The notes beneath the pieces are model-generated. The model did not search any database and was not told the origin of the DNA. It saw only the letters and a program-made list of their open reading frames with translations. Shown piece by piece: positions 19,178-64,000 of a DNA stretch of 64,000 bases. The translations under genes and the position numbers were made by a program. The stretch comes from Naegleria gruberi (taxonomy: Eukaryota): the NCBI GenBank assembly GCA_000004985.1, contig GG738862.1; one strand, given 5' to 3'. The stretch's first letter is position 1, and every line of letters begins with the position of its first letter.

Positions 19178-19783
19178 TTACTTTTGTTGGGCTTGTTGGG
19201 CAGCTTGTTCGGCGTGTTCAAGAATCTTTTTCTTCTTTGATTCGGTCTTTTCAGCTCTCTTTTGCTTGATCTTATCTTGCTTTTCCTTCTTGACCTTAAG
19301 TTGTTCCTTGATACGTTGTTCACGGATAATTTCAGCCTTAGCCTTGAAGACGTGTTCCATCAAAATTCTCTTGCTCTTGAAGACGTTACCCTTGACCTTA
19401 GCGTACAATTCACGGTACAAAGTCTTGTCGATCTTTCCGTTGTCTCTGTACTTCTTCAACAACTTTCTTTCGACTCTCATTCTCTTCAACCATTGGAGCT
19501 TGGATGGATTTCTGGCGTCCTTTGAACCGAATCTCTTACCAATACCCATGTGTCTACCTTCGAGCTTGGCATCCTTTCTCTTTCTCCATCTGTATCTGGT
19601 TCTGATTTCAACAGGCTTTCTGATGATGATACCATCCTTAACCAACTTTCTGATGGTATTTCTTGAGGAAGCTTGAGAAACTTCAGACAATTCGTTTGGA
19701 TCAATCCAGACTCTTCCCTTACCGCAAGACAAAATGTCAGCGGCGAGTCTCTTTTGCAATCTGAATGTTGGACCACCAGTCAT
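19178..19783 (-). CDS. rpl19: 60S ribosomal protein L19e
   Basis: FRLQKRLAADILSCGKGRVWIDPNELSEVSQASSRNTIRKLVKDGIIIRKP...GRHMGIGKR...KGNVFKSKRILMEHV; Lys-rich C-terminus; TAA stop. Confidence 0.9.
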   Translation of the reverse strand: MTGGPTFRLQKRLAADILSCGKGRVWIDPNELSEVSQASSRNTIRKLVKDGIIIRKPVEIRTRYRWRKRKDAKLEGRHMGIGKRFGSKDARNPSKLQWLKRMRVERKLLKKYRDNGKIDKTLYRELYAKVKGNVFKSKRILMEHVFKAKAEIIREQRIKEQLKVKKEKQDKIKQKRAEKTESKKKKILEHAEQAAQQAQQK

Positions 19784-27592: not shown

Positions 27593-27681
27593 TTTTCAAC
27601 TATTTTGGCGCAAGCATCTGTGCTTTTCTCTCTAAATTGGACCCAGATTTTGGACTGGAATGCAATATTGTGAACTAGACT

Positions 27682-27775
27682 GATGATATTTCTTGAGGAA
27701 GCTTGAGAAACTTCAGACAATGGATCAATCCAGGCTCTTCCCTTACTGCAAGACAAAATGTCAGTGGCGAGTCTC
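27682..27775 (-). pseudogene. about 94-bp fragment of the rpl19 coding sequence (codons about 10-42), isolated in the intergenic region
   Basis: Direct comparison with 19669..19768: gat-g-atatttcttgaggaagcttgagaaacttcagacaa[6-bp deletion]tggatcaatccag-ctcttcccttac-gcaagacaaaatgtcag-ggcgagtctc. About 90% identity. The flanking sequence is unrelated. Confidence 0.6.
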
Positions 27776-34699: not shown

Positions 34700-35614
34700 T
34701 TAATAATTCTTAATATCTACACAAGTTGGTCTCTTATTTGGGTCTCTTGACAACATGGCAATAACAAATTCACAAAGTTGTGTTGAATATTGTCTGGAAA
34801 GTAAATGTTCACTCACTCTTTTGAGTACACTCTCCTCGGCTTCATACATGAGCTTGTCAGTGACTGAGAAATCGAAACCACTTGCTGACATACTTTGTAC
34901 AAGTGTTACTCCAAGAGAAAATATATCAACACTATAATCGTACTTTCTTGAAAATACCTCAGGAGCCATATAAAGCAGCGTTCCAACCACACTATTGCTT
35001 GTTTCTCCAAGATCTTTAGCCTCTCCATAATCTCCAATGACAATATTGATTTCCTCCTTTTCAATATCAAAGGATTCAATGAAAATATTCTTTGGTTTGA
35101 TATCTCTGTGAATTATTAGCTTTTCATTGTGGAGATAATCTAAACCATCACCCAATTGTTTCATCATTTTGATAATGACACTTTCTGGTAATGCATTTTC
35201 TTGCTTCTTCAATAATGTTTCCAAATCACCATTGTAAAATTTCATTACAATGCAAATAGAATTGAGTAGTTCAGACTCAAAAAATTCATAAACCTGTACC
35301 AATCTTGGATGTTTGTAAGAAACAGTCTTGGAGCACTCATCAATAATCTTTGAGTGTTTGTTCTCCTCAATACTAATAGTTTTAATGGCCACTGGTTGGT
35401 TTTGTTTTTTCACATCAACACAAAGATAACATTTTCCAAAAGAACCTTTTCCAATCACTTCCTGTATCTGATAACGATCTTTAAGTAAGGAAAATGTGCT
35501 TGCGGAATTGGTTGGATTGAGTGATTTTGATGAAGAGGAAACAATGGAAGACACTTTGCTAGTGCTAAGGAAAGAATCGGTCGGATAATCTGAAGTTGGT
35601 GAGTTTTCAAACAT
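34700..35614 (-). CDS. Ser/Thr protein kinase catalytic domain (304 aa); its ATG immediately follows the TGA stop of the upstream ectodomain/TM ORF
   Basis: GKGSFGKCYLCVDV...VAIKTI, HRDIKPKNIFIE, DYGEAK, GTLLYMAPEV. See the finding on the TGA-ATG junction. Confidence 0.7.
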   Translation of the reverse strand: MFENSPTSDYPTDSFLSTSKVSSIVSSSSKSLNPTNSASTFSLLKDRYQIQEVIGKGSFGKCYLCVDVKKQNQPVAIKTISIEENKHSKIIDECSKTVSYKHPRLVQVYEFFESELLNSICIVMKFYNGDLETLLKKQENALPESVIIKMMKQLGDGLDYLHNEKLIIHRDIKPKNIFIESFDIEKEEINIVIGDYGEAKDLGETSNSVVGTLLYMAPEVFSRKYDYSVDIFSLGVTLVQSMSASGFDFSVTDKLMYEAEESVLKRVSEHLLSRQYSTQLCEFVIAMLSRDPNKRPTCVDIKNY

Positions 35615-38600
35615 TCAAGATGATTTGATAGGTTCTATCAATGGATTCACAGATTTCATAGTCATGGCACTATTCGCATTCTCATCAATCAACTCAAAAT
35701 CATTCTTTACACTTTCGTCTAGTTTCTTACCAGGTGGTTTCTTCACAAACTTTCTAGAAACAACAATAGCAATCACTATTATTACAATAACTACAATAAT
35801 CAATAAAACTACAACCACCACCACAACCGAGACCACAATAGCCACAGTAGTATTGCTCTGACCCTCTCCACCTGTTACAACTTTTGAAATGGTAGCACAA
35901 TCAACACCCTCCCAGCCACTTAAACAGGAACATGTTCCATTGAAAGTGCAATTTCCATTACCATTACAATTCTGTAAAGATTCACAGGATGCTAAAGAAC
36001 ATTGAGAATTTCCCTTCCATCCCTTGTCACATGTACAAATATTACTTCCAGAACAAGTACCATGAGAGGAACAATTATTGACACCTTCACATGTGAATAT
36101 GGAACAATCCAGTGAACCTTTCCATCCAGAATTACATTCACAGCTATTACTACTCTTGCAATTTCCATTTCCATTACAATTATTGTAAATTTCACAGGAG
36201 AATTGACTGCATTGAGAATTTCCCTTCCAACCCAAATCACAAGTGCAAGTATTATTACCAATACATAACCCATGAGAATTACAGTTATTGACACCTTCAC
36301 ATGTGAAAATGGAGCAATTCAAAGAACCCTTCCATCCTGAATTGCACTCACATGTATTATTCAGCTTACAATACCCATTTCCATGACAATTATTGAGAAT
36401 TTCACAGGAAGGTTCTGAGCACTGCATATTTTTCCATCCAGATTGACACAAACATGAATTATTTCCAATACAATCACCATGTGATGAGCAATTACTGACC
36501 CCTTCACATGAAAAAAGCGAACAGTTATTGGAGCCCATCCATCCTGAATCACATAGACATGTGTTATTGTTCACACACTTTCCCTTACCAGTGCAATTGT
36601 TATATAACTCACAAGAGAATTGAGTACATTGTAAATTTCCTCTCCAACCAGAATCACATTGACAAGTATTGTTTCCAACACATATTCCTTTACCATTACA
36701 CTCATTCAAGGCATCACATGAATATTTAGAACATGTGGAAGAACCTCTCCATCCTGAATTGCACTCACATTGATTATTGGTAGAGTTACATACTCCATTA
36801 TTGTAACAACTTCTACTAACATCGCACGGATCAGTTATTTTCCTAATCCTGTGATTGGAAGTATCTGCCAAATATATTGAACCATCCACAGGAGAAAGTG
36901 CCAGGCCTGTGACACCAAAGAATTTTGTACTTAAAGCTGGCAGGTTTTCTCCATTGTAACCATATGTACCTATTCCAGCAATTGTAATAATTGTTCCATT
37001 TGTCAAAATTTTTCTAACTCTATAATTGTACTTATCTGAGAATAAAATTTCACCATTCGAAAGTATATGAATTCCACTTGGTTCAGACAAATGTGCATTC
37101 ACTGCCAAGATGTTATCTCCATTGTAAGCTCTTGTTCCAGTTCCTGCAACTCGAATTACAGTACCATTTGTCAAGACTTTTCTAATGACGTGATTGGAAG
37201 AGTCAGCAATCAACAAATCTCCGTTTGGATAAACATCCAGTCCATTGGGAAAGAATAATTTAGTATTAACAGCCAAAACATCACCCGGATCGTAACCATA
37301 AATCCCAGTTCCCGCATAAGTTATCAATGTTCCATTACTTAAAATCTTTTTAACTCTATGACTCTTTGTCGAGAAATAAATCTCATTACCAAATAGTGCC
37401 AAAGCTTTTGGTTGTCCAATCCCAATATTTGTGGCCAAATCAACAAAAGTATCTTCTGTGTAAGAACCTGTTCCAGCAATTGTTACAATCGTTCCATTTG
37501 TAAGAACCTTTCTAATTCTATAATTTTCAGTATCTGCAATATATAATTCATTAGTAGAGGAAAGTAAAATACCACTTGGATTTTTGATATTTGCATTAAT
37601 AGCAAGAATGTAATCGCCATTATAACTTGGAGAATTTCGAAAATTTCCTCGTCCAACAACAGTTACAATTTGTCCATTGGATAGAATTTTTCTAATTCTT
37701 GAATTGCCAGTATCAGAAATATAGACCTCTCCACTATTCGAAACCACAACAGACTCTGGTGATTTCAGTTTGGCATTTACTGCTAAAATATTATCTCCAT
37801 TGTAACCACTATTTAAATCTAACATATTACCAGCAGTTGTTACAATGTAGCCATCTGGTTTAATCTTTCTCACTCTTCCATTACTATAAAATTCACTGCT
37901 TTCAGAAAAATACACGTCACCTGTCTCTGATACTGCAATTCCTCTTGTGTTTTGTAAAGTGGCAGTTGTTGCAAGTATGTTATCTTGAAAATTTGAATTA
38001 AAAATGTCCAAACTTCCACCAATAACAGTAGTTGTACCATTTTCAATGGAATATTGTAGAACTCTTCTATTCGATTCTGTGTAATAAACTGAACTATTCG
38101 AAACTGTAAGTGCAGTAATAGTATCAACAAGAGAATTATCTTTCTTAACGATTGAAACAATAGTTCCATTTGTAAAAACCTTTCTCACTAAAATATCACC
38201 TGACATTCCAATATATAACTCACCAGTACTTTGTGAAATTCCAATAACCATACTACTGGGCAACTGAGTAGAAAGTGCTGAAATATACTCAGCAGTCTGA
38301 GTTCCACCACCTGCATATCTAGTAATCTTTCCATCTGTTCCAATCTTTCTAATAATAGTTGAATCAGCGATGTATATTTCATCACCTACTCCTTCAATGT
38401 TTCGAATAGTTAAACTATAGGGAAAGTATAATTCTGCATAGATTGCTAGACCGCCATTACCTCCACTTCCTTGAATTCCTGTACCACATATTGTTGAAAT
38501 TATACCATTCACAATCTTTCTAATCCTGAGTGTATCTGTTGAGAGAATTTTAATATTATTCGAAAGCAATGACAAGTACTAACCTGCTATATAAATATGA

Positions 38601-38962
38601 CCAGTGGCTTGCGATACTGCTACTCCATATGGGGAATTTAACACAGCCAAAGTAGCCAATTGATTATCACCATTGAATCCACGTGAAGCCATCCAACCAG
38701 CAACTGAAACTATTGTTCCATTCGAAAGTATTTTTCTAATCATTGAATTTACACTATCAGTAATATACAATTCATTATTGTGAAAAGCTAGTTGCCTTGG
38801 ACCATAGAGCTCTGCTTGGGTTGCCAATTGATTATCACCATTGTAGCCGTAAGGAAGTGATCCAGCAATAGTTGTGATGGTTTGGCATTTGACTGGAGTA
38901 AAAACGTGAAGAAAGAGAGTGAAGAATAATATCAAAATGACGAAGAAAAAGTGCAATTTCAT
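35615..38962 (-). CDS. type I membrane protein: signal peptide, about 12 NHL repeats, about 9 tenascin-type EGF repeats, TM helix, short cytoplasmic tail; 2 exons with a 48-nt intron at 38536..38583
   Basis: Exon 1 MKLHFFFVILILFFTLFLHVF is the signal peptide and begins the NHL repeats (YGYNGDNQLAT..LYITD..IRKI). The GTTAGT...CAACAG intron joins ...HIYIA-D-TLRIRKIVNG. The EGF array has repeated C-x-C-x-S-G-W-x-G-x-x-C units. TM VAIVVSVVVVVVVLLIIVVIVIIVIAIVV. TGA stop at 35615. Confidence 0.7.
35930..36850 (-). repeat. internal tandem array of about 9 EGF-like coding repeats (about 93 nt each) inside the NHL/EGF gene
   Basis: The periodic protein repeat (F/Y)SC(E)..NNC.G.G.C..NN.C.C.SGW.G is visible in the ORF translation. 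Coordinates are approximate. Confidence 0.5.
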
Positions 38963-39271: not shown

Positions 39272-39343
39272 CTCCCATGCCGGGAATTGAACCCGGACCT
39301 CCTGGGTGAAAGCCAGGTATCCTAGCCATTGGACTACACGGGA
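39272..39343 (-). tRNA. tRNA-Glu (anticodon UUC), 72 nt
   Basis: Reverse complement: TCCCGTGTAGTCCAATGGCTAGGATACCTGGCTTTCACCCAGGAGGTCCGGGTTCAATTCCCGGCATGGGAG. The 7-bp acceptor stem TCCCGTG/CATGGGA pairs. The anticodon loop is CT-TTC-AC. The B-box is GGTTCAATTCC. A T8 run 3 nt downstream acts as a Pol III terminator. Confidence 0.9.
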
Positions 39344-39397: not shown

Positions 39398-40156
39398 TTA
39401 ATTAAATTGACTGTTTTGATATTCCACATATTCATTCTCAATCATTTCAACATCGTCCTCCGTAAATCTTTCTCTGTTTTGAGAAAAGACAATTTGGTAG
39501 TATGGCAGAAACCATTTCAATACAGAGCAAGCATAATTGATTTCTTCGTTGTGAGAACAATGAATTCCAATGACCTTATTGTTAAAAGTTTGGCTCTTAA
39601 TGAAATCTCTCACATTTTGAGGTTTTTGAAGAGGATCATTAACAGGCAATCTCATAACATCAGAAACAGTAATATTACAAGTTAATAAGGGTGATCCAGA
39701 GTTTGAGGAGCAGGTATTTACAAAATGGGGAATGATGAAATCTGATATTCTCTTGTCAGATAGCCATCCTAAACTCATAGAAAACTGAGTGTCAGGAATC
39801 AATCTCAGTATCTGTTCATATGGAACTCCAGTATCTTTACACTTTTCAATATCAGATTTCATGTATGGTGAAGGAATGGAAAGCCCAAATACAAAGCAAG
39901 AATAATTATCTGGAATGGTTTCTGAATTTTGCGGATTCACCTTTAATACCTGAGATGGGGATGGTATTAAATAGTTTGGAGAACCATACTCCATATAGTT
40001 TTCAAATGAGAGGATGGCCCAGTCTTCTGCAATCCCGCTTTCAGATATCTTTTCATAATCTCCCACTGCTTCAATTTGACATTCAAAACAATACTGTTGT
40101 GTTTTTTCGATATCCTTAGTTTGATTAAAGCTTCCATATACTTTTTTCAATGTCAT
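39398..40156 (-). CDS. putative chymotrypsin-fold (V8/Glu-endopeptidase-like) serine peptidase domain protein
   Basis: TCSSNSGSPLL ... NNKVIGIHCSH resembles the GNSGSPV ... VIGIHWGG blocks of V8-like S1B peptidases. The rest is unrecognised. Weak call. Confidence 0.4.
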   Translation of the reverse strand: MTLKKVYGSFNQTKDIEKTQQYCFECQIEAVGDYEKISESGIAEDWAILSFENYMEYGSPNYLIPSPSQVLKVNPQNSETIPDNYSCFVFGLSIPSPYMKSDIEKCKDTGVPYEQILRLIPDTQFSMSLGWLSDKRISDFIIPHFVNTCSSNSGSPLLTCNITVSDVMRLPVNDPLQKPQNVRDFIKSQTFNNKVIGIHCSHNEEINYACSVLKWFLPYYQIVFSQNRERFTEDDVEMIENEYVEYQNSQFN

Positions 40157-40234
40157 TATTGTTTCAGATGAGGAATGATTCTTACAACAATGAGCACAAC
40201 TTATTAAATAATTCTTTTTTTCTGTTGAAAAAGG

Positions 40235-41815
40235 AGCTACAAGAAATCCTGTAGAGATGGTACTAAGTGACGGTGAAACGGGGGACGGATGAGACGGAGA
40301 ACACTCAGTTTCTTACTAAAGACGGGAGAAGAGCATCCGCTTAATACTGATGACGGTAAACCAAAATGGAAAATGCACAACCTTAGTAACACCGATAAAT
40401 TGAATGATACATTTATACAATTGAATTTTCCAATTATATTAAATAGATTCTCTTGTGTTGTTTGGCTTGAATTGTTGGAACGAAAACCAAGCAAGGTATT
40501 ACGAGAGTTTGGTTGATTTTTTGAAGCAAGGTTTGTTTGTTCAGTTAAGAATATGTGAAAAAATATTTCAACATCTAGTACGTGATGTACTTTGATGATT
40601 CTTCGAGTGGTTTCACATCCGTAAGCTGCCAAACTTTCACATCATCATCTCAACATCATCTAAATAGTAGTAATAGTAGTAATTTTTATTATTGGACTTT
40701 CATCATAAAATAGTAAATCAATTTTTGGATTATAATTTTTCAAGTTGGTAAACCATCATCGGAACACTCACCAACCGTCATCATAGATATATTTAATATA
40801 GTAGAATAGTATGGGTGATTTCTATGTCTTGGAAATATCTTTATTTGGGTGAAACTCAACATTTTACTAAAATCATCATCACTGTTGAATCCATTGGAAA
40901 GATTGGAAAACTATTAATATAGGATTGTTGGAAATGGTCAATAGTAGCATAGTAAATTTGAACGGTGGATTTTCATCAAGTTTTGATAGGGATAGGTACA
41001 TGTGAATTTTAAAAAGTACATGGACCATAACTCAACATGTACTTCACCAACTTGGAAACTTTCTTCTAGTACTATTGTTTAAATCACTAATAAACACCAT
41101 ATTTAATATCAGTTTTTCATTATTTTGTGTTTTGGCTTGGAGAGAGATTTCTAGCCAAACCTTTTATGATTCACTCCTTCAAGAGTGATTCAAAAATTAT
41201 CAAACTCATTGTGAACATTACACAATGATATTAAAATAATAAAATTCTTGTTTTTTCTTTTTATTTCATTTCTTTCACCTTAAATCGAACAATTAACCTT
41301 ATTTCCTTAAACATCATTAAGATCAAATTGCATTTCAAATATAACCAACTTTTTCAACATCTACACGTTATAGGGATCACATTCATATCAATTAATCCAT
41401 ATTTTTCATTTTCAGTAAAAAATCAAAATTTGAACTTTCCAAAGTTTACTATTTACCTGAATTGTTTGAGAAGGAAACTTCTCATAAAAAGAAGGGTAGT
41501 TTCTCAACAGTGTTTTAATCAACTAAGTCAAATTATTTCATGTCATTCTTAAATTTGAGACAGAAAGAGTGAAATCTTTGATTTTAGTGAATATTCCACA
41601 ACAGAGGTGTTGTGTTTGTGAATTTATTTCCATTTTAAATTTTTCCATTTTGGATTTATTATAGAATGATACATTAGTATTTCCCTTAATTCCATTCTTG
41701 CTCCGTCTCTTACTGCTGACTGTCCCGTTTGACAGCTTATTACATCTGACGGATCCCGTTAGACGGGATTTACCGTCACACCGTCAATTAGTATCTCCTC
41801 TAAGACAATTGTTAT
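40235..41815. mobile_element. candidate non-autonomous DNA element (about 1.6 kb, no long ORF) bounded by inverted subterminal clusters of GACGG/AAACGG motifs
   Basis: Left end 40252..40370: tagagatggtactaagtgacggtgaaacgggggacggatgagacggag...gacgggag...tgacggtaaa. Reverse complement of the right end 41700..41800: gaggagatactaattgacggtgtgacggtaaatcccgtctaacgggatccgtcag...caaacggg...gagacggag. The two ends share tactaaKtgacggtg, aaacggg, gagacggag and tgacggtaaa in inverted orientation. These GC-rich islands sit in AT-rich DNA. Confidence 0.3.
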
Positions 41816-42123
41816 AATAATAGTTTTTTAAATATTTAGGAATTAGCAATCTACTGGCGTCCTTGCTGTGCTCAAGGAGAGAACGATCTTGTTTTAAAAT
41901 TAAAGTTTCATTTTGTTCTTTGTCTTTTTCCTCCTGAGGAGACGTTTCGTACTTAAGGTTGCGAAACTCTTCCAATGCTTGATATTCAAGCTCAGTGTAG
42001 ACTCTCATTTTTCTAAGGCAACAACAGGTATTTTCAGACTGTTTTGTGTTATTTGTGGAATTTTTTTAATATTAAAATTTATTTAAATGACAAAATTGGT
42101 AAACTCTTGAATTCAAAAATTAT

Positions 42124-44333
42124 TTACAAAATGGAAATATCCTCAATGGAACTTTCAACCTTAGATTCATTTTGAGAATTGATAATAGGTTGGGATTCCT
42201 CAAGTTTTGGCATGTCAATTTCACTCTTTCCGAACATCATTTGTCTTTCAGCCAATTTTCTATAGATACCATCTTCCTTCTTAATCAATTCATGATGAGT
42301 GCCTGATTCTTTCAATTCTCCCTTCACTAAGACATAGATAGTATCACAATTTTGAACAGTACTCAATCTGTGAGCAATACAAATGGAGGTTCTTCCTTGC
42401 ATGAGATTATCAAGAGCTGCCTGAACAAGTCCTTCACTTTCTGTGTCAAGGGCTGAAGTGGCTTCATCCAAGAGGAGAACTTGTGGATCTTGTAAAATAG
42501 CTCTGGCAATGGCAACACGTTGCTTTTGACCACCTGATAAGGAAACACCCTTTTCACCAAGTTTGGTGTCATATCCATCAGGTAAATCCATAATGAAATT
42601 ATGACAATTGGCAGATTTGGCAGCTTCTTCAATTTGAGTTTGAGAAACATTTTCACTACCAACTGCATAAGCAATATTTTCTCTGATAGTAGTTGCAAAC
42701 AATACAGGTTCTATTTAAATGAATTAATACGAAATTATTAAGAATTAAACATACCTTGTGTGACAATACCAATATTTCTATGGAGCCATTGTGGATCAAT
42801 ATCCTTAATATTATATCCATCAATGACAATATCTCCTTCTTGTGGATCATAGAATCTTTCCAATAAACCAACAATGGTTGACTTTCCTGAACCTGATGGA
42901 CCTACCAAAGCGACTGAAGTTCCTGGTTTAATGTCAATGGAAAAGTCAGTCAATACAGTAGCATTAGGTCTAGATGGATAGACAAACTTGACATTCTTAA
43001 TTTGAATGGAACCTTTCAATTTCTCTTCTGGAGCTTTTCCTCCCTTGAATGGAATGGCAGGTTCTCTCTTTAAAACTCTAAGAAGAGTTTTTTGAGACAT
43101 TTGTGCTTTGGAAAATTCTGGAACTTGAGTACCGGCTTGTGACAAACCAATGACACCAAAAAGCATCAAACCGAAAACCTTCATCATGGCACCAACAGAA
43201 ATTGTGCTTTCAGCAACTAAACCACCTCCATACTATTATTTCAAATTCAATTGGCGAAATAATTGTAAATAATTGTTAGAAATGAATTTTTGAAAACTTA
43301 CCCAAAATGATAAAGCAATAGTTCCCCAAAGAATAAATGAAACAGCTGCAAATGTTGTTCCTTGCAAAATTGCTTTAAAAAAACCATAAGTATTGATATT
43401 TTTCAAATCCTTAGCAAATCTCTCTTGTTCCTTCTCTTCACAACCCATACTCTTGACAGTTCTAAAACTAGAAACAACTTCAGTGGCAATAGAAGCAGAA
43501 TGTTCAGTTGCTCCATTTGTCTTTTTGGTCAATACTTCCACAATCTTGGACAAGACACCAACACCAAAGACTAACAATGGAGAAGTTGAAATCATTACCA
43601 AGGACATTTGCCAAGAGGAAACAAAGGCAAGCACAATACCAATAATGAATTGAGCAGTGTTTTGTAAAAGGAGGGCCAATTTGTTTGAGTAAACTTCTTG
43701 AATTTTGGAAATGTCTTCACTCAACGCAACTGTCAAGGCACCTGTCTTTTTGATATCAAAGAACCCCATTTCTTGTCTGGTCAATGCGTTGAAATAGGCT
43801 TTTCTCAATGAAACACCAATTCTTTCACTTGCCAAATTCAAAAAGAATTGAGACAGAAAACTAGCAACTGCAGACGCAGCAGCAATAATTGTAAATTTGA
43901 TAGCAATATCAGAAACACTTGCTTTCATAGAGTCTACTGTTGGAACAACACCATTCTTTGGTTGAAAAACATCCACCAAGTCACCCATCACAAATTGAAA
44001 ACTGAGTGGAATAACACCGTTACCCAAACTTCCAATAGCTCCAATCAATACCAACAACCAATTCCATCCAAAAATCTTGAAAATGATCATGTTATCCTTT
44101 CCAGTAAGTGTTGGTTCTCTCTCATCTTTAATTTCTTCAGAATTTGGTTTTTCTTCTTTCTTCTTTTTGAATCGTTTAAATGGATTTCTACTTGGTCTTT
44201 CTTCTGGTGCTTGTTTTGCACCAGCGTTTGTATTATTCAATTGTTCTTTATCTATTGTCGTTACAGTTGTTGTCGTTTGATCGGAAGAGCCAGTGTTGAT
44301 CAAGGCTTCCTTATTCACTTCCTTTTTCGTCAT
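42124..44333 (-). CDS. ABCB-type half transporter (TMD-NBD), 698 aa; 3 exons 44333..43302, 43232..42755 and 42710..42124
   Basis: Introns GTAAGTTTTC...AATAG (43233..43301, after ...ILW) and GTATGT...TAAATAG (42711..42754, phase 1) restore one frame. Walker [13 protein letters not shown] signature [16 protein letters not shown]. Walker [13 protein letters not shown]. Six TMD helices in exon 1. The true ATG is at 44333 (MTKKEVNKE). Confidence 0.8.
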
Positions 44334-44924
44334 ATTTTCAATATTTACAATCTTTTTCAATTATTGTTATTATTACTACAGATTCCAGATTCAAAATTGT
44401 AAATTAAAATATTACAACAATAATGGAGTGAGAACTTTTTTTTAGACTTGTATTTTAGTTGCTTCTATCAAAATTGAGATGAAATATTGAAAATTAAATG
44501 GGTGTTTGGCGATCCGTAATGGCGCTGAAAAGGTTATATTTGGATGAATTGCTGAATATGGCGTGATGGAATCCCGTGGCGGCATTGAACTAACTTTGGA
44601 TGCTTGGTATTAGATGAGATGGTAGATCAAACAATTAATAGAATGGATAAGTGGAAATATCATGGGGATATTTAGATTGGCTGAAAACTGTAAATCTTTT
44701 ATGTTGTAAAGGATTTTGATTGAATGATTAAGGAAATGGTAAATGGTTGAAACGAATAATTCATCAATAATGTAATGGAAATGTTTCTAGTGATCTTCAA
44801 AGCACAATCACAAGTATTGAGTTTTAAGAGAGCATAATAAGCTTGGTGAAGATACCCATAGTAATCTTAATCACGATAATTTCAAGCCTGCCGTTATTAA
44901 CAAAGGATTAAGCTTTAGAAAAAA

Positions 44925-45818: not shown

Positions 45819-46522
45819 TTACACAGATTAAGGATCATCCAGATATCACACAAACTCTTGCTGATTTCCAGGAGCAATTGTTGTTTAAGGCTGAAGCAAA
45901 ATATGCTGAAATCATTGTTAAATTAAAAAATAGAATTGATGAAATAGAGAGTAATCAAATTAACGACAAGAAGGATAGGAAAGAATATGAGAGAAGGACC
46001 AATGAAACAATTATTGAACAAAAAAACCTGTTAATAAGATTGAAAAAAGATACTAATTCTCTTGAAAGAAAAATTGAAGAACATAAAAGAAAATTCGAAG
46101 AGCAAGCAATGAAGTTAAAGAATCAAAAAGATGAATATGAAGCAAAATTCGAAGAGCAAGCAACGAAGTTAAAGAATCAAAAAGATGAATATGAAACAAA
46201 ATTAGCTGATTTGAAAAAGAAGCTAAAAGAACACGAAACAGGAATACAGGAACTAAAGGAACAACACAAAACACAATTAGAGGAGCAAATGGATCAATAT
46301 GAAACACAATTAGAGGAGCAATTAAATCAATACCAAGAACAATTAGAAGAGGAAAGAGCTTACAAAACAAAATTAGAGGAGCAAATTGAAAGTATGGGCA
46401 AAAATATTCAATCATTGTCGTCTAAACTAGCTAATTATGAATTTGATAGTTTGGTAAAGCCAAACAAAAGATGTTCCTGTGATTGTTCAATATGTAAGGG
46501 ATGTCAAAAACCTGTTTTTTAA
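45815..46522 (+). CDS. coiled-coil protein (235 aa) with a C-terminal Cys cluster CSCDCSICKGC; contains a 54-nt tandem duplication
   Basis: Heptad-rich KLKNQKDEYE.KFEEQA. The start ATGA overlaps the stop of the previous ORF. The C-terminal 103 codons are duplicated at 61342..61653. Confidence 0.45.
   Translation: MITQIKDHPDITQTLADFQEQLLFKAEAKYAEIIVKLKNRIDEIESNQINDKKDRKEYERRTNETIIEQKNLLIRLKKDTNSLERKIEEHKRKFEEQAMKLKNQKDEYEAKFEEQATKLKNQKDEYETKLADLKKKLKEHETGIQELKEQHKTQLEEQMDQYETQLEEQLNQYQEQLEEERAYKTKLEEQIESMGKNIQSLSSKLANYEFDSLVKPNKRCSCDCSICKGCQKPVF
46091..46198 (+). repeat. two tandem copies of a 54-nt unit (aaattcgaagagcaagcaaYgaagttaaagaatcaaaaagatgaatatgaaRc)
   Basis: Seen directly. The copies at 46091..46144 and 46145..46198 differ at 2 positions and encode KFEEQA(M/T)KLKNQKDEYE(A/T). 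Confidence 0.8.
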
Positions 46523-46667
46523 TTCTTGACAATCTTCTATCCAATAAATACATTTCTCGTATTGATTAATCTTGTTTTATTCTCAATACTATTTAACAGA
46601 GGTTCTTTCGTGTTGTCACAATTTTTTCTGAGGAAACCTTTTCAGATGTTTCATTTCAAGGTCGAAA

Positions 46668-47591
46668 TTGATTATTGTCATGTTTTTTTCCAAAAAAATG
46701 TTCATTCCGATTCCTTCATGGAGTGATGATCATCACGTGGTGAATAATCCTCCGATAAATGATGATCAATCCAGTGATGATCATGAAACGTCTACAAACA
46801 ATTTAAATCATGTAAAATTTCCATCATATGATTATAGTTACCTTATTGAAAAACAAAAATTGGAGAATACATTTAATACTGCATTTATTGGTGGTAATGA
46901 TCAAACAGAGTTTAAGAAGTACGATAAATGTATTAGTAATTTTAAATTGGATTCAGTGTCATCTCACTATTGCGAGAATAGTAAACCATACATATCAAAT
47001 AACAAATACTTGAATGAACTCTATCATATTTATATTAATGATGAAAAAAAAATTGAATTGAATAATATTAATCATTTTTACAATAATACTTGGAAGAATG
47101 TTAATTTGGAAAATGAGTGTATTCATTCTATTGAAAATCATTTAAGATCAGTTACTGTTTATGGAAAAAATACTAATTTTTTTGTTTTAAATACATTTGA
47201 TAGATTTAAGGAGATGTTTGATCAAGTTGTTAAAAAAAATGAAATTTCGAATGCAGAATTAAGTAACTTTATATTTATTGGTGGTAATGGCCAAAGTTTC
47301 TTTTATGAATTAAATAGTAATGTACTCATTAATGCACACCAACGGGGTAATGACCATTATTATTGCCTAAAAGGTTGTTTATCGGAAGGTGAATTTGTTG
47401 AATATCTTTGTGTTTACAATTTATCCTATTTGAAATATTCTGTATTTATTTTAACTAATTTTGGAAGAGTTTTATATCAAAAAGAACACAAAATGGTTGA
47501 ACTTGAAACAAAATTGAAATTTATTAAAATAATAGAGAGCAGAATGGGATTTAATTTATTTTATTGTATAATGAGTGATAATTATTTATAA
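46668..47591 (+). CDS. hypothetical Asn-rich protein (307 aa)
   Basis: ORF only. No domain recognised. Duplicated, with an internal deletion, at 61657..62358. Confidence 0.35.
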   Translation: MIIVMFFSKKMFIPIPSWSDDHHVVNNPPINDDQSSDDHETSTNNLNHVKFPSYDYSYLIEKQKLENTFNTAFIGGNDQTEFKKYDKCISNFKLDSVSSHYCENSKPYISNNKYLNELYHIYINDEKKIELNNINHFYNNTWKNVNLENECIHSIENHLRSVTVYGKNTNFFVLNTFDRFKEMFDQVVKKNEISNAELSNFIFIGGNGQSFFYELNSNVLINAHQRGNDHYYCLKGCLSEGEFVEYLCVYNLSYLKYSVFILTNFGRVLYQKEHKMVELETKLKFIKIIESRMGFNLFYCIMSDNYL

Positions 47592-47783
47592 GGGATTTCA
47601 TCAAAAGGAAAAGATTTCACTTTAACAAAATCAAATATAATCAAAAGAAAAGTTAAAAATATTAAATATTTAAAGTGTGGAACATTACTGATACAAACCT
47701 TATCTAATGAATGGATATTTAAAACTAACAATGATTTAAAAACGGTATTTCCATTTTTTAAATCAAAAAAGGACTTCTCTGAT

Positions 47784-48197
47784 TTGGAGGTGCACAACAT
47801 TTTGGGTCTGATTGCCAAATCAAGAAAAAGAAGAACACTACTAGATAACTTATTACCATCATGTATAGAAATAGTTGGAGATAGTGTAAATTCTATTTGT
47901 TTTCTATTACAAGATTATACACTTTATATATCAAATGAAGTTAATCAAAAACATAAGAAAATTTATTCTGTAAATTTCTTAAAATTAAATTTAATAGATA
48001 TTGGAATTCCATTAAAAGAATTAAGTTCAACCTCATTCCAAGATAGAAATTTAATTATTAAAAATAGAGATGGAAACATATTGTTTGGAATTGAAAAAAT
48101 ACCTAAATTAACACATTCCTTAATTTCACATTGCAAATTATTATTTGAAAAATTGAAATTGAATATTTTAACTGATATTGACATTATTTTATGTTAA
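47784..48197 (+). CDS. hypothetical protein (at least 137 aa; the frame is open further upstream and the true 5' end is undetermined)
   Basis: ORF. The track start is TTG. Identical at the amino-acid level to the copy at 62330..62833. Confidence 0.35.
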   Translation: MEVHNILGLIAKSRKRRTLLDNLLPSCIEIVGDSVNSICFLLQDYTLYISNEVNQKHKKIYSVNFLKLNLIDIGIPLKELSSTSFQDRNLIIKNRDGNILFGIEKIPKLTHSLISHCKLLFEKLKLNILTDIDIILC

Positions 48198-48367
48198 TCA
48201 ATTTTTGATTTGTTGATAGAGGGAAGAGACAGGAAAATACAGCACGCATGGTACCTTCGCTGTAAATCACACAAAAAATTATTTAATTTAAATAATCTTT
48301 TAATTTAAACTATTGAAAGGAAAAGAAAATAAAGGAATTAAATAATTAAATTAAAGATATTACAAAC

Positions 48368-50302
48368 ATGATGCGCTTGCAAAAGTTAAAAAAAATGGGA
48401 AAACGAAAACATTCAAAAATTTCAAAGGAAAAGAAAAATATTCATCAAAGGGAGGAAAAGTCTGCACCAGGAGTTGTTATGACTAATTTGCCAGATGGAG
48501 CATCATTACAAATTTCTACAAAAAAGAAAAAGATGTCTCATGCTTCTTCTACTACTCCGAAGAATGATCAAATTGGATTGGAAATGATTGAAAAATGGCA
48601 GCAAATTTTGAGTTTGCAAGATACACTCACCCTGATTCTGGGTTACATTCCCGAATATTTATTGGAGAGAACAATGAGATTTGTTAATAGGGATTTTTAT
48701 CTTGCATCCTCTGTTGCTTGGAGAGAGAATATTCGAAGTTTGAAAATTCATGCATCATCACTCAAGGAAATAGAGATTGGTATTAAAAGATGGGAAAAAC
48801 TCAAGAATTTGAAAGATGTAAAGATTTCGTTTACTGATTTTGATATATGCTATGAGTTTGATGTTTGTTGCTTGAGTCATTTGGGATTTGAAAAAATTGG
48901 AGTTGTTAATACCACATCAATATTTTCCAAATCTCTTGTTGACACTAAATGGGTTGAAACTTTGAGATATTTACAAATTGATATTCATCAACAATATTTT
49001 ACTGCCTTGTTTGACTTGAATTTACACACTTTGGTTGTACAATTTCTTGAATTGGATGATAGTGAATTAATTATTGGAAAGGATGATAAGCCTTTATTTA
49101 AAAGTTTAACCCATCTCGATTACTCGAGTATAGCATTCAATAACATGGATGAATTTTTGAATAGACTTGTTAACCTTAAAAAATTGAGAAATGGTGATGA
49201 TGACATGAGTATTGAGAATATCAAATTACCTAATTTGAAACACTATAATTGTATGCATGAATTAATGGGGATAGAAGAGGTATTTCCAAAGTTAGAATCT
49301 CTAAAATCATATTCTAGTTTTTCAACAGCTAACGTGACAGGAGCAATCTCCCTAAAAACTTTAAAATCGGTAACCCTTAGTTTAGAATCAAAAACGATTA
49401 GCTCTATTCCAGATGCACTGTTTAATTTACCACTCCTTGAAAAGTTGTCATTGCTTGTCTACTGCTCCAGTCTAACAAAATGTTCAAAAATTAACCCAAA
49501 ACCATTGGATAATTTGAAAAAGGTAAAGCTTGTATTTTTTGAATACGAGAACGGTGAGCTTCCAATATCATTCTTTCATTTCAGAAAATGTAGCAATATT
49601 GAAAAAATTAGATTTGAAGAGGAAAGTCAAAAGGTATTAGTGGATATGAATGATTTTTCAAATTTTCCATTATTGAAAAGTCTAGCAGTAACAGCTGGAT
49701 CTGCTTCTAACTGGAATAGTCCTATTTGCACTCTGGAATCATTGGCAATTAATGTAAAAAAACAATGCTCAGTTACACTCACAGGACTAGACAAACTGAA
49801 GCGTTTGGAATATGTATCACAAAATATGAATAGTCTGGTTCAATATCTAAATGATAACTCCAATGATTGTATTAGAGATTTGAATATTTCTGGAAAGGAT
49901 ATTTCAAAGTTCACATCATTTCCCTGTTATTTGGAAACCCTCACCATTACAAACATGTATCTAAAAGAAATTAATGAGAGATTTGTGAACATTGTCAATA
50001 ACCAAACCAACCTTAGAAAACTAGTCATTGAGGAATCCAAATTCGACCTGGTTCCACTCTCGGAATCGCTCACTTGTCTCATCCATCAAATTAGCAAAAT
50101 ACAATTGAGTGGTGAATGCTATCCTATACCATACTCTGAATCCAAATATATTACCAATTTAATCAAAGTCCTATCAATATATGACTCCAAGAAAATAGAT
50201 CTCAAACTCAGTGGTTTTAATTATACATTCTCAAATCAATCAACTGGATATCTCATCTCTCAAATCAATTCCCGTTTTACAACAATTTCATTTACCTCAT
50301 GA
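48368..50302 (+). CDS. F-box-like/LRR-like repeat protein (644 aa)
   Basis: N-terminal basic region, then the F-box-like block IEKWQQILSLQDTLTLILGYIPEYLLERTMRFVNRDFYLASSVAWREN. The rest is leucine-rich repeats. ATG at 48368. Confidence 0.5.
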   Translation: MMRLQKLKKMGKRKHSKISKEKKNIHQREEKSAPGVVMTNLPDGASLQISTKKKKMSHASSTTPKNDQIGLEMIEKWQQILSLQDTLTLILGYIPEYLLERTMRFVNRDFYLASSVAWRENIRSLKIHASSLKEIEIGIKRWEKLKNLKDVKISFTDFDICYEFDVCCLSHLGFEKIGVVNTTSIFSKSLVDTKWVETLRYLQIDIHQQYFTALFDLNLHTLVVQFLELDDSELIIGKDDKPLFKSLTHLDYSSIAFNNMDEFLNRLVNLKKLRNGDDDMSIENIKLPNLKHYNCMHELMGIEEVFPKLESLKSYSSFSTANVTGAISLKTLKSVTLSLESKTISSIPDALFNLPLLEKLSLLVYCSSLTKCSKINPKPLDNLKKVKLVFFEYENGELPISFFHFRKCSNIEKIRFEEESQKVLVDMNDFSNFPLLKSLAVTAGSASNWNSPICTLESLAINVKKQCSVTLTGLDKLKRLEYVSQNMNSLVQYLNDNSNDCIRDLNISGKDISKFTSFPCYLETLTITNMYLKEINERFVNIVNNQTNLRKLVIEESKFDLVPLSESLTCLIHQISKIQLSGECYPIPYSESKYITNLIKVLSIYDSKKIDLKLSGFNYTFSNQSTGYLISQINSRFTTISFTS

Positions 50303-61308: not shown

Positions 61309-64000
61309 ATAAAAAGATGATATGAAACAAAATTAGCTGATTTGAAAAAGAAGCTAAAAGAACACGAAACAGGAATACAGGAACTAAAGGAACAACACAA
61401 AACACAATTAGAGGAGCAAATGGATCAATATGAAACACAATTAGAGGAGCAATTAAATCAATACCAAGAACAATTAGAAGAGGAAAGAGCTTACAAAACA
61501 AAATTAGAGGAGCAAATTGAAAGTATGGGCAAAAATATTCAATCATTGTCGTCTAAACTAGCTAATTATGAATTTGATAGTTTGGTAAAGCCAAACAAAA
61601 GATGTTCCTGTGATTGTTCAATATGTAAGGGATGTCAAAAACCTGTTTTTTAATTCTTGACAATCTTCTATCCAATAAATACATTTCTCGTATTGATTAA
61701 TCTTGTTTTATTCTCAATACTATTTAACAGAGGTTCTTTCGTGTTGTCACAATTTTTTCTGAGGAAACCTTTTCAGATGTTTCATTTCAAGGTCGAAATT
61801 GATTATTGGTCTTTGTTTTTTTCCAAAAAAATGTTCATTCCGATTCCTTCATGGAGTGATGATCATCACGTGGTGAATAATCCTCCGATAAATGATGATC
61901 AATCCAGTGATGATCATGAAACGTCTACAAACAATTTAAATCATGTAAAATTTCCATCATATGATTATAGTTACCTTATTGAAAAACAAAAATTGGAGAA
62001 TACATTTAATACTGCATTTATTGGTGGTAATGATCAAACAGAGTTTAAGAAGTATGATAAATGTATTAGTAATTTTAAATTGGATTCAGTGTCATCTCAC
62101 TATTGCGAGAATAGTAAACCATACATATCAAATAACAAATACTTGAATGAACTCTATCATATTTATATTAATGATGAAAAAAAAATTGAATTGAATAATA
62201 TTAATCATTTTTACAATAATACTTGGAAGAATGTTAATTTGGAAAATGGGTGTATTCATTCTATTGAAAATCATTTAAGATCAGTTACTGTTTATGGAAA
62301 AAATACTAATTTTTTTGTTTTAAATACATTTGATAGATTTAAGGAGATGGATATTTAAAACTAACAATGATTTAAAAACGGTATTTCCATTTTTTAAATC
62401 AAAAAAGGACTTCTCTGATTTGGAGGTGCACAACATTTTGGGTCTGATTGCCAAATCAAGAAAAAGAAGAACACTACTAGATAACTTATTACCATCATGT
62501 ATAGAAATAGTTGGAGATAGTGTAAATTCTATTTGTTTTCTATTACAAGATTATACACTTTATATATCAAATGAAGTTAATCAAAAGCATAAGAAAATTT
62601 ATTCTGTAAATTTCTTAAAATTAAATTTAATAGATATTGGAATTCCATTAAAAGAATTAAGTTCAACCTCATTCCAAGATAGAAATTTAATTATTAAAAA
62701 TAGAGATGGAAACATATTGTTTGGAATTGAAAAAATACCCAAATTAACACATTCCTTAATTTCACATTGCAAATTATTATTTGAAAAATTGAAATTGAAT
62801 ATTTTAACTGATATTGACATTATTTTATGTTAATTATTTTACAACTAACTAGAAATTTTTGATTTGTTGATAGAGGGAAGAGACAGGGAAAATACAGCAC
62901 GCATGGTACCTTCTGTAAATCACAACAATTAAAATACAAAAAATTGTGTAAATAATTATAATATTACAAACATGATGCGCTTGCAAAAGTTAAAAAAAAT
63001 GGGAAAACGAAAACATTCAAAAATTTCAAAGGAAAAGAAAAATATTCATCAAAGGGAGGAAAAGTCTGCACCAGGAGTTGTTATGACTAATTTGCCAGAT
63101 GGAGCATCATTACAAATTTCTACAAAAAAGAAAAAGATGTCTCATGCTTCTTCTACTACTCCGAAGAATGATCAAATTGGATTGGAAATGATTGAAAAAT
63201 GGCAGCAAATTTTGAGTTTGCAAGATACACTCACCCTGATTCTGGGTTACATTCCCGAATATTTATTGGAGAGAACAATGAGATTTGTTAATAGGGATTT
63301 TTATCTTGCATCCTCTGTTGCTTGGAGAGAGAATATTCGAAGTTTGAAAATTCATGCATCATCACTCAAGGAAATAGAGATTGGTATTAAAAGATGGGAA
63401 AAACTCAAGAATTTGAAAGATGTAAAGATTTCGTTTACTGATTTTGATATATGCTATGAGTTTGATGTTTGTTGCTTGAGTCATTTGGGATTTGAAAAAA
63501 TTGGAGTTGTTAATACCACATCAATATTTTCCAAATCTCTTGTTGACACTAAATGGGTTGAAACTTTGAGATATTTACAAATTGATATTCATCAACAATA
63601 TTTTACTGCCTTGTTTGACTTGAATTTACACACTTTGGTTGTACAATTTCTTGAATTGGATGATAGTGAATTAATTATTGGAAAGGATGATAAGCCTTTA
63701 TTTAAAAGTTTAACCCATCTCGATTACTCGAGTATAGCATTCAATAACATGGATGAATTTTTGAATAGACTTGTTAACCTTAAAAAATTGAGAAATGGTG
63801 ATGATGACATGAGTATTGAGAATATCAAATTACCTAATTTGAAACACTATAATTGTATGCATGAATTAATGGGGATAGAAGAGGTATTTCCAAAGTTAGA
63901 ATCTCTAAAATCATATTCTAGTTTTTCAACAGCTAACGTGACAGGAGCAATCTCCCTAAAAACTTTAAAATCGGTAACCCTTAGTTTAGAATCAAAAACG
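61309..64000 (+). repeat. second copy of the segment 46176..49396 (segmental duplication; extends beyond the window end)
   Basis: Direct comparison of the two intervals. 61342..61653 equals the C-terminus of the 235-aa coiled-coil ORF. 61657..62358 equals the 307-aa ORF, except for a 497-bp deletion (copy-1 47217..47713, ATG microhomology) and an E-to-G change. 62330..62833 and 62972..64000 are identical in amino-acid sequence to the 47784 and 48368 genes. The intergenic stretch between the two downstream genes is diverged. Confidence 0.85.

Follow-up and report, generated by a model that had tools for sequence, protein, structure and literature searches.

A 1551-bp island in the nuclear DNA of Naegleria gruberi, at positions 40252–41802 of the 64,000-nt stretch of contig GG738862.1 (assembly GCA_000004985.1) that was analysed here (the window), is on balance best read as the relic of a non-autonomous cut-and-paste (class II, terminal-inverted-repeat) DNA transposon. 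The island is intergenic, with an ABC-transporter gene on one side and an orphan gene on the other. This reading follows from the combination of an imperfect terminal inverted repeat with sharp edges, motif arrays that run inward from both ends, inner copies of the terminal unit, and unrelated non-coding filler between them, which is how the ends of cut-and-paste DNA transposons are usually built. It also follows from the spacing of the genes: the stop codon of the ABC-transporter gene at 42124 and the ATG of the neighboring gene at 40156 are 1,967 nt apart, and this gap shrinks to ~416 nt when 40252–41802 is taken out. Most likely, the element is a dead DNA transposon of an ordinary kind, whose tips are hAT-like and whose arms resemble those of inverted repeat-direct repeat (IR-DR) elements, and it is probably immobile now.

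Repeat Architecture of the Element

The left terminal inverted repeat, TAGAGATGGTACTAAGTGACGGTGAAACGG, occupies 40252–40281 on the plus strand, starts with TAGAG, and pairs with the right terminal inverted repeat at 41773–41802, which reads TAGAGGAGATACTAATTGACGGTGTGACGG on the minus strand. In a repeat search, these terminal arms were complementary at 24 of 30 nt (80%); the six mismatches are mostly non-wobble (A-C, U-U, G-A, and A-A on the plus strand), as seen by inspection of the sequence. The same search found an inner inverted pair of 16 nt at 40358–40373 and 41641–41656 with 94% complementarity. The inner inverted block, TAAA(T)CCAAAATGGAAAA, is 17–18 nt long and lies 105–145 nt inward of the terminal repeat, with its right partner at 41641–41658. 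When the left end was locally aligned with the reverse complement of the right end, none of 500 shuffles reached the score of the terminal and inner blocks. Beyond the terminal repeat, similarity between the outer flanks is at chance level (100 of 500 shuffles reach the score), and the outer boundary of the terminal repeat is therefore sharp.

Furthermore, the terminal unit is found again at the inner edge of each arm in the same orientation as at the tip, so that the whole element has the layout [unit>]-motifs-[unit>]-1.27 kb-[<unit]-motifs-[<unit]. In the left arm, the outer unit TACTAAGTGACGGTGAAAC (40261–40279) recurs as the inner unit TACTGATGACGGTAAAC (40345–40361), a score reached by 7 of 1000 shuffles; together with the CCAAAATGGAAAA block that comes after it, the left inner unit extends over 40345–40373. 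In the right arm, read on the minus strand, the outer GGAGATACTAAT recurs as the inner GGAAATACTAAT, and 11 of 1000 shuffles reach the score. This right inner unit (41641–41697, minus strand) is decayed and reads TTAAGGGAAATACTAATGTATCATTCTATAATAAATCC, then AAAATGGAAAA. A four-way alignment of the copies gives a common unit of roughly TA(G/A)(A/G)G..(G/A)ATACTAA(G/T)[TGACGGTG]TGACGGTAAA(T)CC, with AAAATGGAAAA directly after the unit in both inner copies. The repeated unit can also be written as GATACTAAGTGACGGTGAAAC, and the pattern from tip to unit as TAGAG...TACTAA(G/T)TGACGGTG. In the right inner copy, the GACGG motifs are gone, and the changes are concentrated at the positions where the outer copy has GACGG. 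Two extra copies of the terminal repeat that seemed to lie inside the element, at 41662–41679 and 40385–40417, were dropped, their scores being below those of random matches in the window.

The arms also stand apart in composition. As an earlier note made from the sequence of this DNA had stated, the two patches are GC-rich, with 45% G+C in the left one and 39% in the right one versus 33% in the window, while the AT-rich non-coding interior between them (40374–41640, with no strand assigned) has 29%. The observed/expected ratio of CpG is 1.23 in the left arm and 1.19 in the right arm, versus 0.41–0.42 in the interior and in the window. Read inward, the arms contain ~65% purines (66% in the left arm).

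Motif Arrays and Hairpin

Both arms are packed with short motifs that have an ACGG core. Per 130 nt there are six such cores on the left and seven on the right, versus a window average of 1.09 per kb, and no 130-nt window outside the two clusters holds more than two of them anywhere in the 64 kb. The left subterminal array (40270–40356, plus strand) consists of the six motifs TGACGGTG, AAACGGGG, GGACGGAT, GAGACGGAG, AGACGGGAG, and TGACGGTAA. The right subterminal array (41703–41785), assigned to the minus strand, consists of seven, five on the minus and two on the plus strand. Orientation is thus mirrored, with 6/6 cores on the plus strand at the left end and 5/7 on the minus strand at the right end. 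With both strands counted, the 64 kb contain 17 copies of the longer motif GACGG, of which 11 fall within 40269–41785. The clustering of GACGG in each patch that the earlier note had described was found again: five copies lie in the left patch, all on the plus strand (40269–40356), and five in the right patch (41703–41785), three on the minus and two on the plus strand. Exact AAACGG occurs once per arm, and the recurrent motif is GACGG/ACGGG.

The strings that the earlier note had listed as common to the two patches are indeed there. TACTAAGTGACGGTG at 40261–40275 on the plus strand corresponds to TACTAATTGACGGTG at 41779–41793 on the minus strand, and the two patches also share AAACGGG, GAGACGGAG, and TGACGGTAAA, again inverted. 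The arms have the types of motif in common, but the order and the spacing of the motifs differ. Because the order differs between the ends, the arrays fit protein-binding sites better than a duplicated segment.

Oppositely oriented copies of the motif in the right arm form a hairpin, ATCCCGT-TAG-ACGGGAT (41753–41769), which with the outer GACGG and CCGTC extends to the composite GACGG-ATCCCGT-TAG-ACGGGAT-TTA-CCGTC at 41748–41777. In the earlier note, this hairpin had been called near-perfect with a loop of 4 nt; the 7-bp stem is in fact perfect, and the loop is the 3-nt TAG. The minimum-free-energy folds of the two strands both contain this hairpin, and because of it the right arm is more stable than its shuffles (z −2.5 and −2.4); the left arm is not (z −0.45 and −0.22).

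Interior without Coding or RNA Signals

The interior has ~35 stop codons per frame, and a Pfam search with the six-frame translation of the island at an E-value of 1 gave no match. A hexamer coding score, trained on the long open reading frames (ORFs) of the window, does not exceed zero between ~40410 and 41580 and increases toward the arms on either side. On the strand that reads inward, the purine-rich arms have weakly positive scores, and the frame of a 74-aa ORF keeps a positive score from 42008 down to ~41620, across an in-frame TGA. Because no homologue, Pfam match, or plausible intron was found, the coding score of the arms and of this frame is put down to composition: it is probably an effect of purine-rich sequence without stops, not a gene.

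Several reading frames touch the element. On the minus strand, 41535–42008 contains a 74-codon ORF starting with ATG (41784–42008), whose frame is interrupted by TGA at 41784–41786 and then continues for 83 more codons through the right arm; no homologue and no Pfam match was found for this frame, and the ORF with its extension is probably a compositional artefact. A 131-codon ORF with a TTG start (40237–40632, minus strand) overlaps the left arm and shows no coding signal, and a protein search with its 131-aa product, aimed at ORFs that might have been called over further copies of the element, found no homologue, not even the product itself in the collection. None of the four ORFs in or beside the element is in the protein collection. 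The 131-codon ORF and the ORFs of 74–75 codons in or beside the element are flagged as probably spurious. The earlier note had stated that no gene longer than 75 codons lies between the patches, and apart from the 131-codon ORF there is indeed no ORF above this length. It had also called this region the largest non-coding gap, and 40157–42123 is indeed the longest stretch of the window without a supported ORF of at least 120 aa; the element explains this largest gene-free gap.

Inside the region, searches with Rfam 15 at E-values up to 10 gave nothing but weak hits, to snoRNA and miRNA families among others. All of them were far below their gathering scores, the best one scoring 24 bits versus a threshold of 70 bits. 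Across the window, the sole match was a tRNA-Glu at 39272–39343. The part of the interior that was folded, 40374–41370, is no more stable than its shuffles (z −0.63 and 0.03).

A Probable Relic of a Non-autonomous DNA Transposon

Each end of the element is composed of a ~30-nt terminal inverted repeat, GACGG/ACGGG motifs in an array that runs inward, an inner copy of the terminal unit, and the CCAAAATGGAAAA block. The motifs and the repeated units are putative binding sites of a transposase, by analogy with the subterminal hexamers of Ac/Ds and with the repeats at the outer and inner edges of the arms of IR-DR Tc1-like elements. Such a transposase, supplied in trans, would assemble on these sites, bring the two ends together, and cleave the DNA at the termini. 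The AT-rich interior of 1.27 kb is non-coding filler, and the element itself encodes nothing.

Several observations weigh against a transposon. No second copy was found within the 64-kb window: when the element was compared with the remainder of the window by BLASTN (word size 7), all matches were at chance level, with E-values of 0.08 or worse. Among the ~40 ORFs of the window, there is no transposase. Exact-pattern scans were made with the terminal pattern TACTAANTGACGGTGNNACGG, in which 18 bases are specified, and those of metagenome, viral, and prokaryote sequences yielded chance matches only. In metagenome contigs there were two matches, both unrelated and with no further likeness to the arms, and in viral contigs none. 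In prokaryote genomes there was a single match, in a bacterial metagenome-assembled genome, which was taken as chance without inspection. Finally, according to one recent survey, transposable elements make up only 0.28% of the N. gruberi genome (bioRxiv 10.64898/2026.06.24.734286), which lowers the prior probability of finding one here.

A further objection is that no target-site duplication of 3–11 bp was found at the boundary of the repeat or within 15 nt of it. For duplications of 2–11 bp, the boundary was moved by −15 to +7 nt, and the two ends were also shifted independently; this search returned only TA, AAT (3 bp, at an arbitrary offset), and a 6/7 match that overlaps the repeat itself. 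The 8-bp duplication, which the earlier note had proposed as a check, is missing at this locus: the 8-bp flanks AAATCCTG and AGACAATT are identical at 3/8 positions, and at no more than 4/8 when the boundary is shifted by up to 3 nt either way. Since the terminal repeats are 80% alike, ~6/8 matches would be expected in the flanks if the repeats had begun identical; this expectation fails, however, if the terminal repeats were imperfect from the start. The TA found at both ends (40252–40253 and 41801–41802) also counts among the objections, for it is palindromic and may be part of the repeat.

As a precedent in favor of a transposon, such elements are on record for N. gruberi, namely MuDRF (PMC3164196) and Kolobok (PMC9587614). 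The literature that we searched for hAT or miniature inverted-repeat elements in Naegleria deals with these two and with the low content of transposable elements, and gives no account of the element at 40252–41802 or of hAT elements in Naegleria. If the element is a transposon relic, it adds one more family of DNA transposons to a genome with very little mobile DNA, and its terminal unit, (G/A)ATACTAA(G/T)TGACGGT(G)AAA, may be used as a handle to search for an autonomous partner in Heterolobosea.

Resemblance to Known Transposon Families

A narrower form of the transposon reading, that of a Ds-type non-autonomous element of the hAT superfamily whose transposase would recognize GACGG/AAACGG with its DNA-binding domain, is doubtful. 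Structural hallmarks of hAT elements are the terminal motif YARNG and a target-site duplication of 8 bp (PMC3014272). The former is consistent with the TAGAG at 40252–40256 and, on the minus strand, at 41802–41798. In Ac/Ds, terminal repeats of 11 bp are followed by ~200 bp of subterminal sequence with AAACGG hexamers, to which the transposase binds cooperatively; the interior of Ds1 and Ds-like elements is unrelated filler (PMC3260210). The island resembles this arrangement: its imperfect termini start with YARNG, its subterminal regions of 100–200 bp are packed with motifs and differ between the two ends, and its filler is unrelated. Its short inverted termini, followed by asymmetric arrays of CGG motifs with only one exact AAACGG in each arm, recall those of Ac/Ds (PMC3260210). 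The lack of a duplication would not be without precedent, as decayed maize Ds elements with flanks matching at 1–5 of 8 positions are on record (PMC3260210).

The differences from Ac/Ds are substantial. Here there is no 8-bp duplication (3/8), the motif is mainly GACGG/ACGGG, and direct copies of the terminal unit stand at the outer and the inner edge of the arms, which is not a described feature of hAT elements. In addition, no transposase of the hAT kind, with BED finger, DDE, and hAT dimerization domains, was found among the ORFs of the window, and the host is a heterolobosean, for which the literature searched mentions no Naegleria hAT element. Because the defining 8-bp duplication was looked for and is not present, the element is not filed as hAT. 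Of the hAT-like non-autonomous transposon that the earlier note had suggested, the non-autonomous inverted-repeat type is the best explanation, the TAGAG ends fit, and the CGG arrays resemble those of Ac/Ds; against its assignment to hAT stand the missing duplication, the inner copies of the unit, and the single AAACGG per arm.

Another narrower form of the transposon reading is a Tc1/mariner element of the IR-DR type, and the fit of such a TA-flanked Tc1-like element is as good as that of hAT, so that the two are equally open. Taken by itself, this assignment too is doubtful. The TA would then be the target-site duplication, the element proper would begin with GAG at 40254 and end with CTC at 41800, and the two inverted arms of 125–165 nt would each contain an outer and an inner repeat as putative transposase-binding sites. 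Outer and inner direct repeats arranged in this manner are typical of IR-DR ends of the Sleeping Beauty, Tc3, and Minos type. Indeed, TA is found directly outside both tips, and direct copies of a ~20–37-nt unit stand at the outer and inner edges of the arms (p ~0.01 per arm), which is the IR-DR arrangement; long inverted arms with the unit at the tip and at the inner edge are also shared with IR-DR Tc1-like elements. On the other hand, a palindromic TA is indistinguishable from an extension of the inverted repeat. Tc1/mariner termini usually have CAG or CAGT after the TA, whereas those of the present element are GAGATGG and GAGGAGA, with no CA(G/T) start. The added GACGG motifs between the units are atypical of IR-DR ends, the arms are shorter than the usual 200–250 bp or more, and neither a DD34E/D transposase nor a transposase remnant was found in the window.

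Mutator-like elements are another point of comparison. They have long terminal inverted regions that hold transposase-binding sites, and the GAGAT that comes after TA here resembles the terminal repeat of maize Mu. The present element is similar to them in its long terminal inverted regions and in its insertion near the 5′ end of a gene. Unlike Mutator-like elements, it has no 9–11-bp duplication (the best match, 6/10, is at an arbitrary offset), and its arms can be aligned as repeats over the first 30 nt only, with nothing but motifs in common farther in. Two other classes were rejected. Miniature inverted-repeat transposable elements are under ~800 bp and occur in many near-identical copies, while the present element is 1551 bp long with one copy in 64 kb. 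Helitrons have 5′-TC and CTRR-3′ ends between a host A and T, a hairpin 10–12 nt from the 3′ end, and no inverted termini. Against a Helitron speak the presence of inverted termini, the position of the hairpin at 41748–41777, which ends 25 nt from the terminus, and the CTAA at 41800–41803, which is followed by G rather than T.

Non-mobile Alternatives

The arrays may instead never have been mobile. They could be mirrored binding sites of a sequence-specific host factor, forming either a promoter or enhancer of the orphan gene with a matching module at the other end, or an element like a boundary, a replication origin, or a centromere around an AT-rich core; we consider this unlikely. With respect to the ATG at 40156, the left array lies at 96–217 nt on the upstream side, where a promoter is typically found in a compact genome, and CpG-containing motifs kept at an observed/expected ratio of 1.2 in a CpG-depleted genome (0.41) would fit selection on the sites. 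The missing target-site duplication and the single copy in the 64-kb window also agree with a host element. However, no gene is oriented to match the right arm, the supported genes to the right of it all being on the minus strand, and a sharp-edged 30-nt inverted repeat with inner copies is not expected of promoters. At 29%, the G+C content of the interior is also not the lowest in the window, parts of which go down to 23%. As for the factor, the earlier note had raised clustered sites of a Myb-type protein as an alternative, and this is weak: the Myb core YAAC(G/T)G is found in only one of the 16 ACGG sites of the region (TAACGG at 41756, minus strand).

A related proposal, that of a functional chromosomal element in which selection keeps CpG-containing mirror arrays of GACGG around an AT-rich core in a genome encoding DNMT1 and TET, appears to us quite improbable. 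In such a case, the arrays could be domesticated transposon ends bound by a host factor or by one derived from a transposase, and could serve as a boundary, an origin, or a centromere-like site. This proposal is kept alive by the lack of a target-site duplication despite terminal repeats that are 80% identical, and by the retained CpGs. Repeats are reported to be preferentially methylated in N. gruberi (PMC12344493). If the arrays prove unique and conserved, an array of CpG sites in a genome with DNMT1 and TET would be a handle on centromeres, origins, and promoter motifs. To our knowledge, none of these has been described for N. gruberi.

It is highly improbable that the island is an RNA gene, for a long non-coding transcript or a structured RNA, in which the inverted repeats would bring the 5′ and 3′ ends together. 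In line with such a gene, the two ends can pair along stretches of 30 nt and 17 nt, and the right arm is more structured than its shuffles (z ~−2.4). But no Rfam family matches even at an E-value of 10, neither the interior nor the left arm folds better than shuffled sequences at the z values given above, and the mismatches in the terminal repeat are mostly non-wobble. Motifs that are mirrored but irregularly spaced fit protein sites, not a helix. A relic non-autonomous DNA transposon stays the preferred reading of 40252–41802.

Genomic Neighborhood

The window is gene-dense, with 33% G+C and a CpG observed/expected ratio of 0.41. The ABC-transporter gene to the right of the element (42124–44360, minus strand) contains short spliceosomal introns of the forms GTAAGT...TAG and GTATGT...TAG. 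To the left, the orphan ORF (39398–40156, minus strand) encodes a protein of 252 aa that is 100% identical to a predicted protein of N. gruberi at NCBI, and its ATG lies 96 nt left of the left arm. Among 5.8 billion proteins, the only match of this protein was itself, and Pfam gave no match at an E-value of 10. By eye, its segments SSNSGSPLL and VIGIH may resemble the region of the active-site serine in proteases of the chymotrypsin fold. Other ORFs of the window encode ribosomal protein L19e, NMD3, an actin-family protein, Kae1/TsaD, a TruB-family pseudouridine synthase, a MUS81-like nuclease, kinases, and F-box proteins.

The tRNA-Glu(TTC) gene at 39272–39343 (minus strand) is located 55 nt downstream of the orphan gene and ~900 nt from the left end of the element. 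Proximity to tRNA genes is a target preference of some mobile elements in other protists.

Farther to the left, a receptor-like gene (34700–38962, minus strand) is composed of an ORF with NHL and teneurin-type EGF repeats (35615–38962) and then a protein-kinase ORF (34700–35614). Since a single stop separates the two ORFs, a short intron is likely at this position. The internal repeats of this gene are ~70% identical.

The window contains other repeats as well. A segmental duplication joins 46179–49396 and 61311–64000, with 99.4% identity over 1040 nt and 95.2% over 1715 nt, and reaches the end of the window. It holds the stretches of lowest G+C (23–24% at 47–48 kb and 62–63 kb) and ORFs without a Pfam match, and could be a recent tandem-like duplication or part of a larger repeat family. 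A dispersed repeat of 102 nt is found in direct orientation at 19650–19751 and 27680–27775 with 90% identity, and one of its copies adjoins the gene for ribosomal protein L19e.

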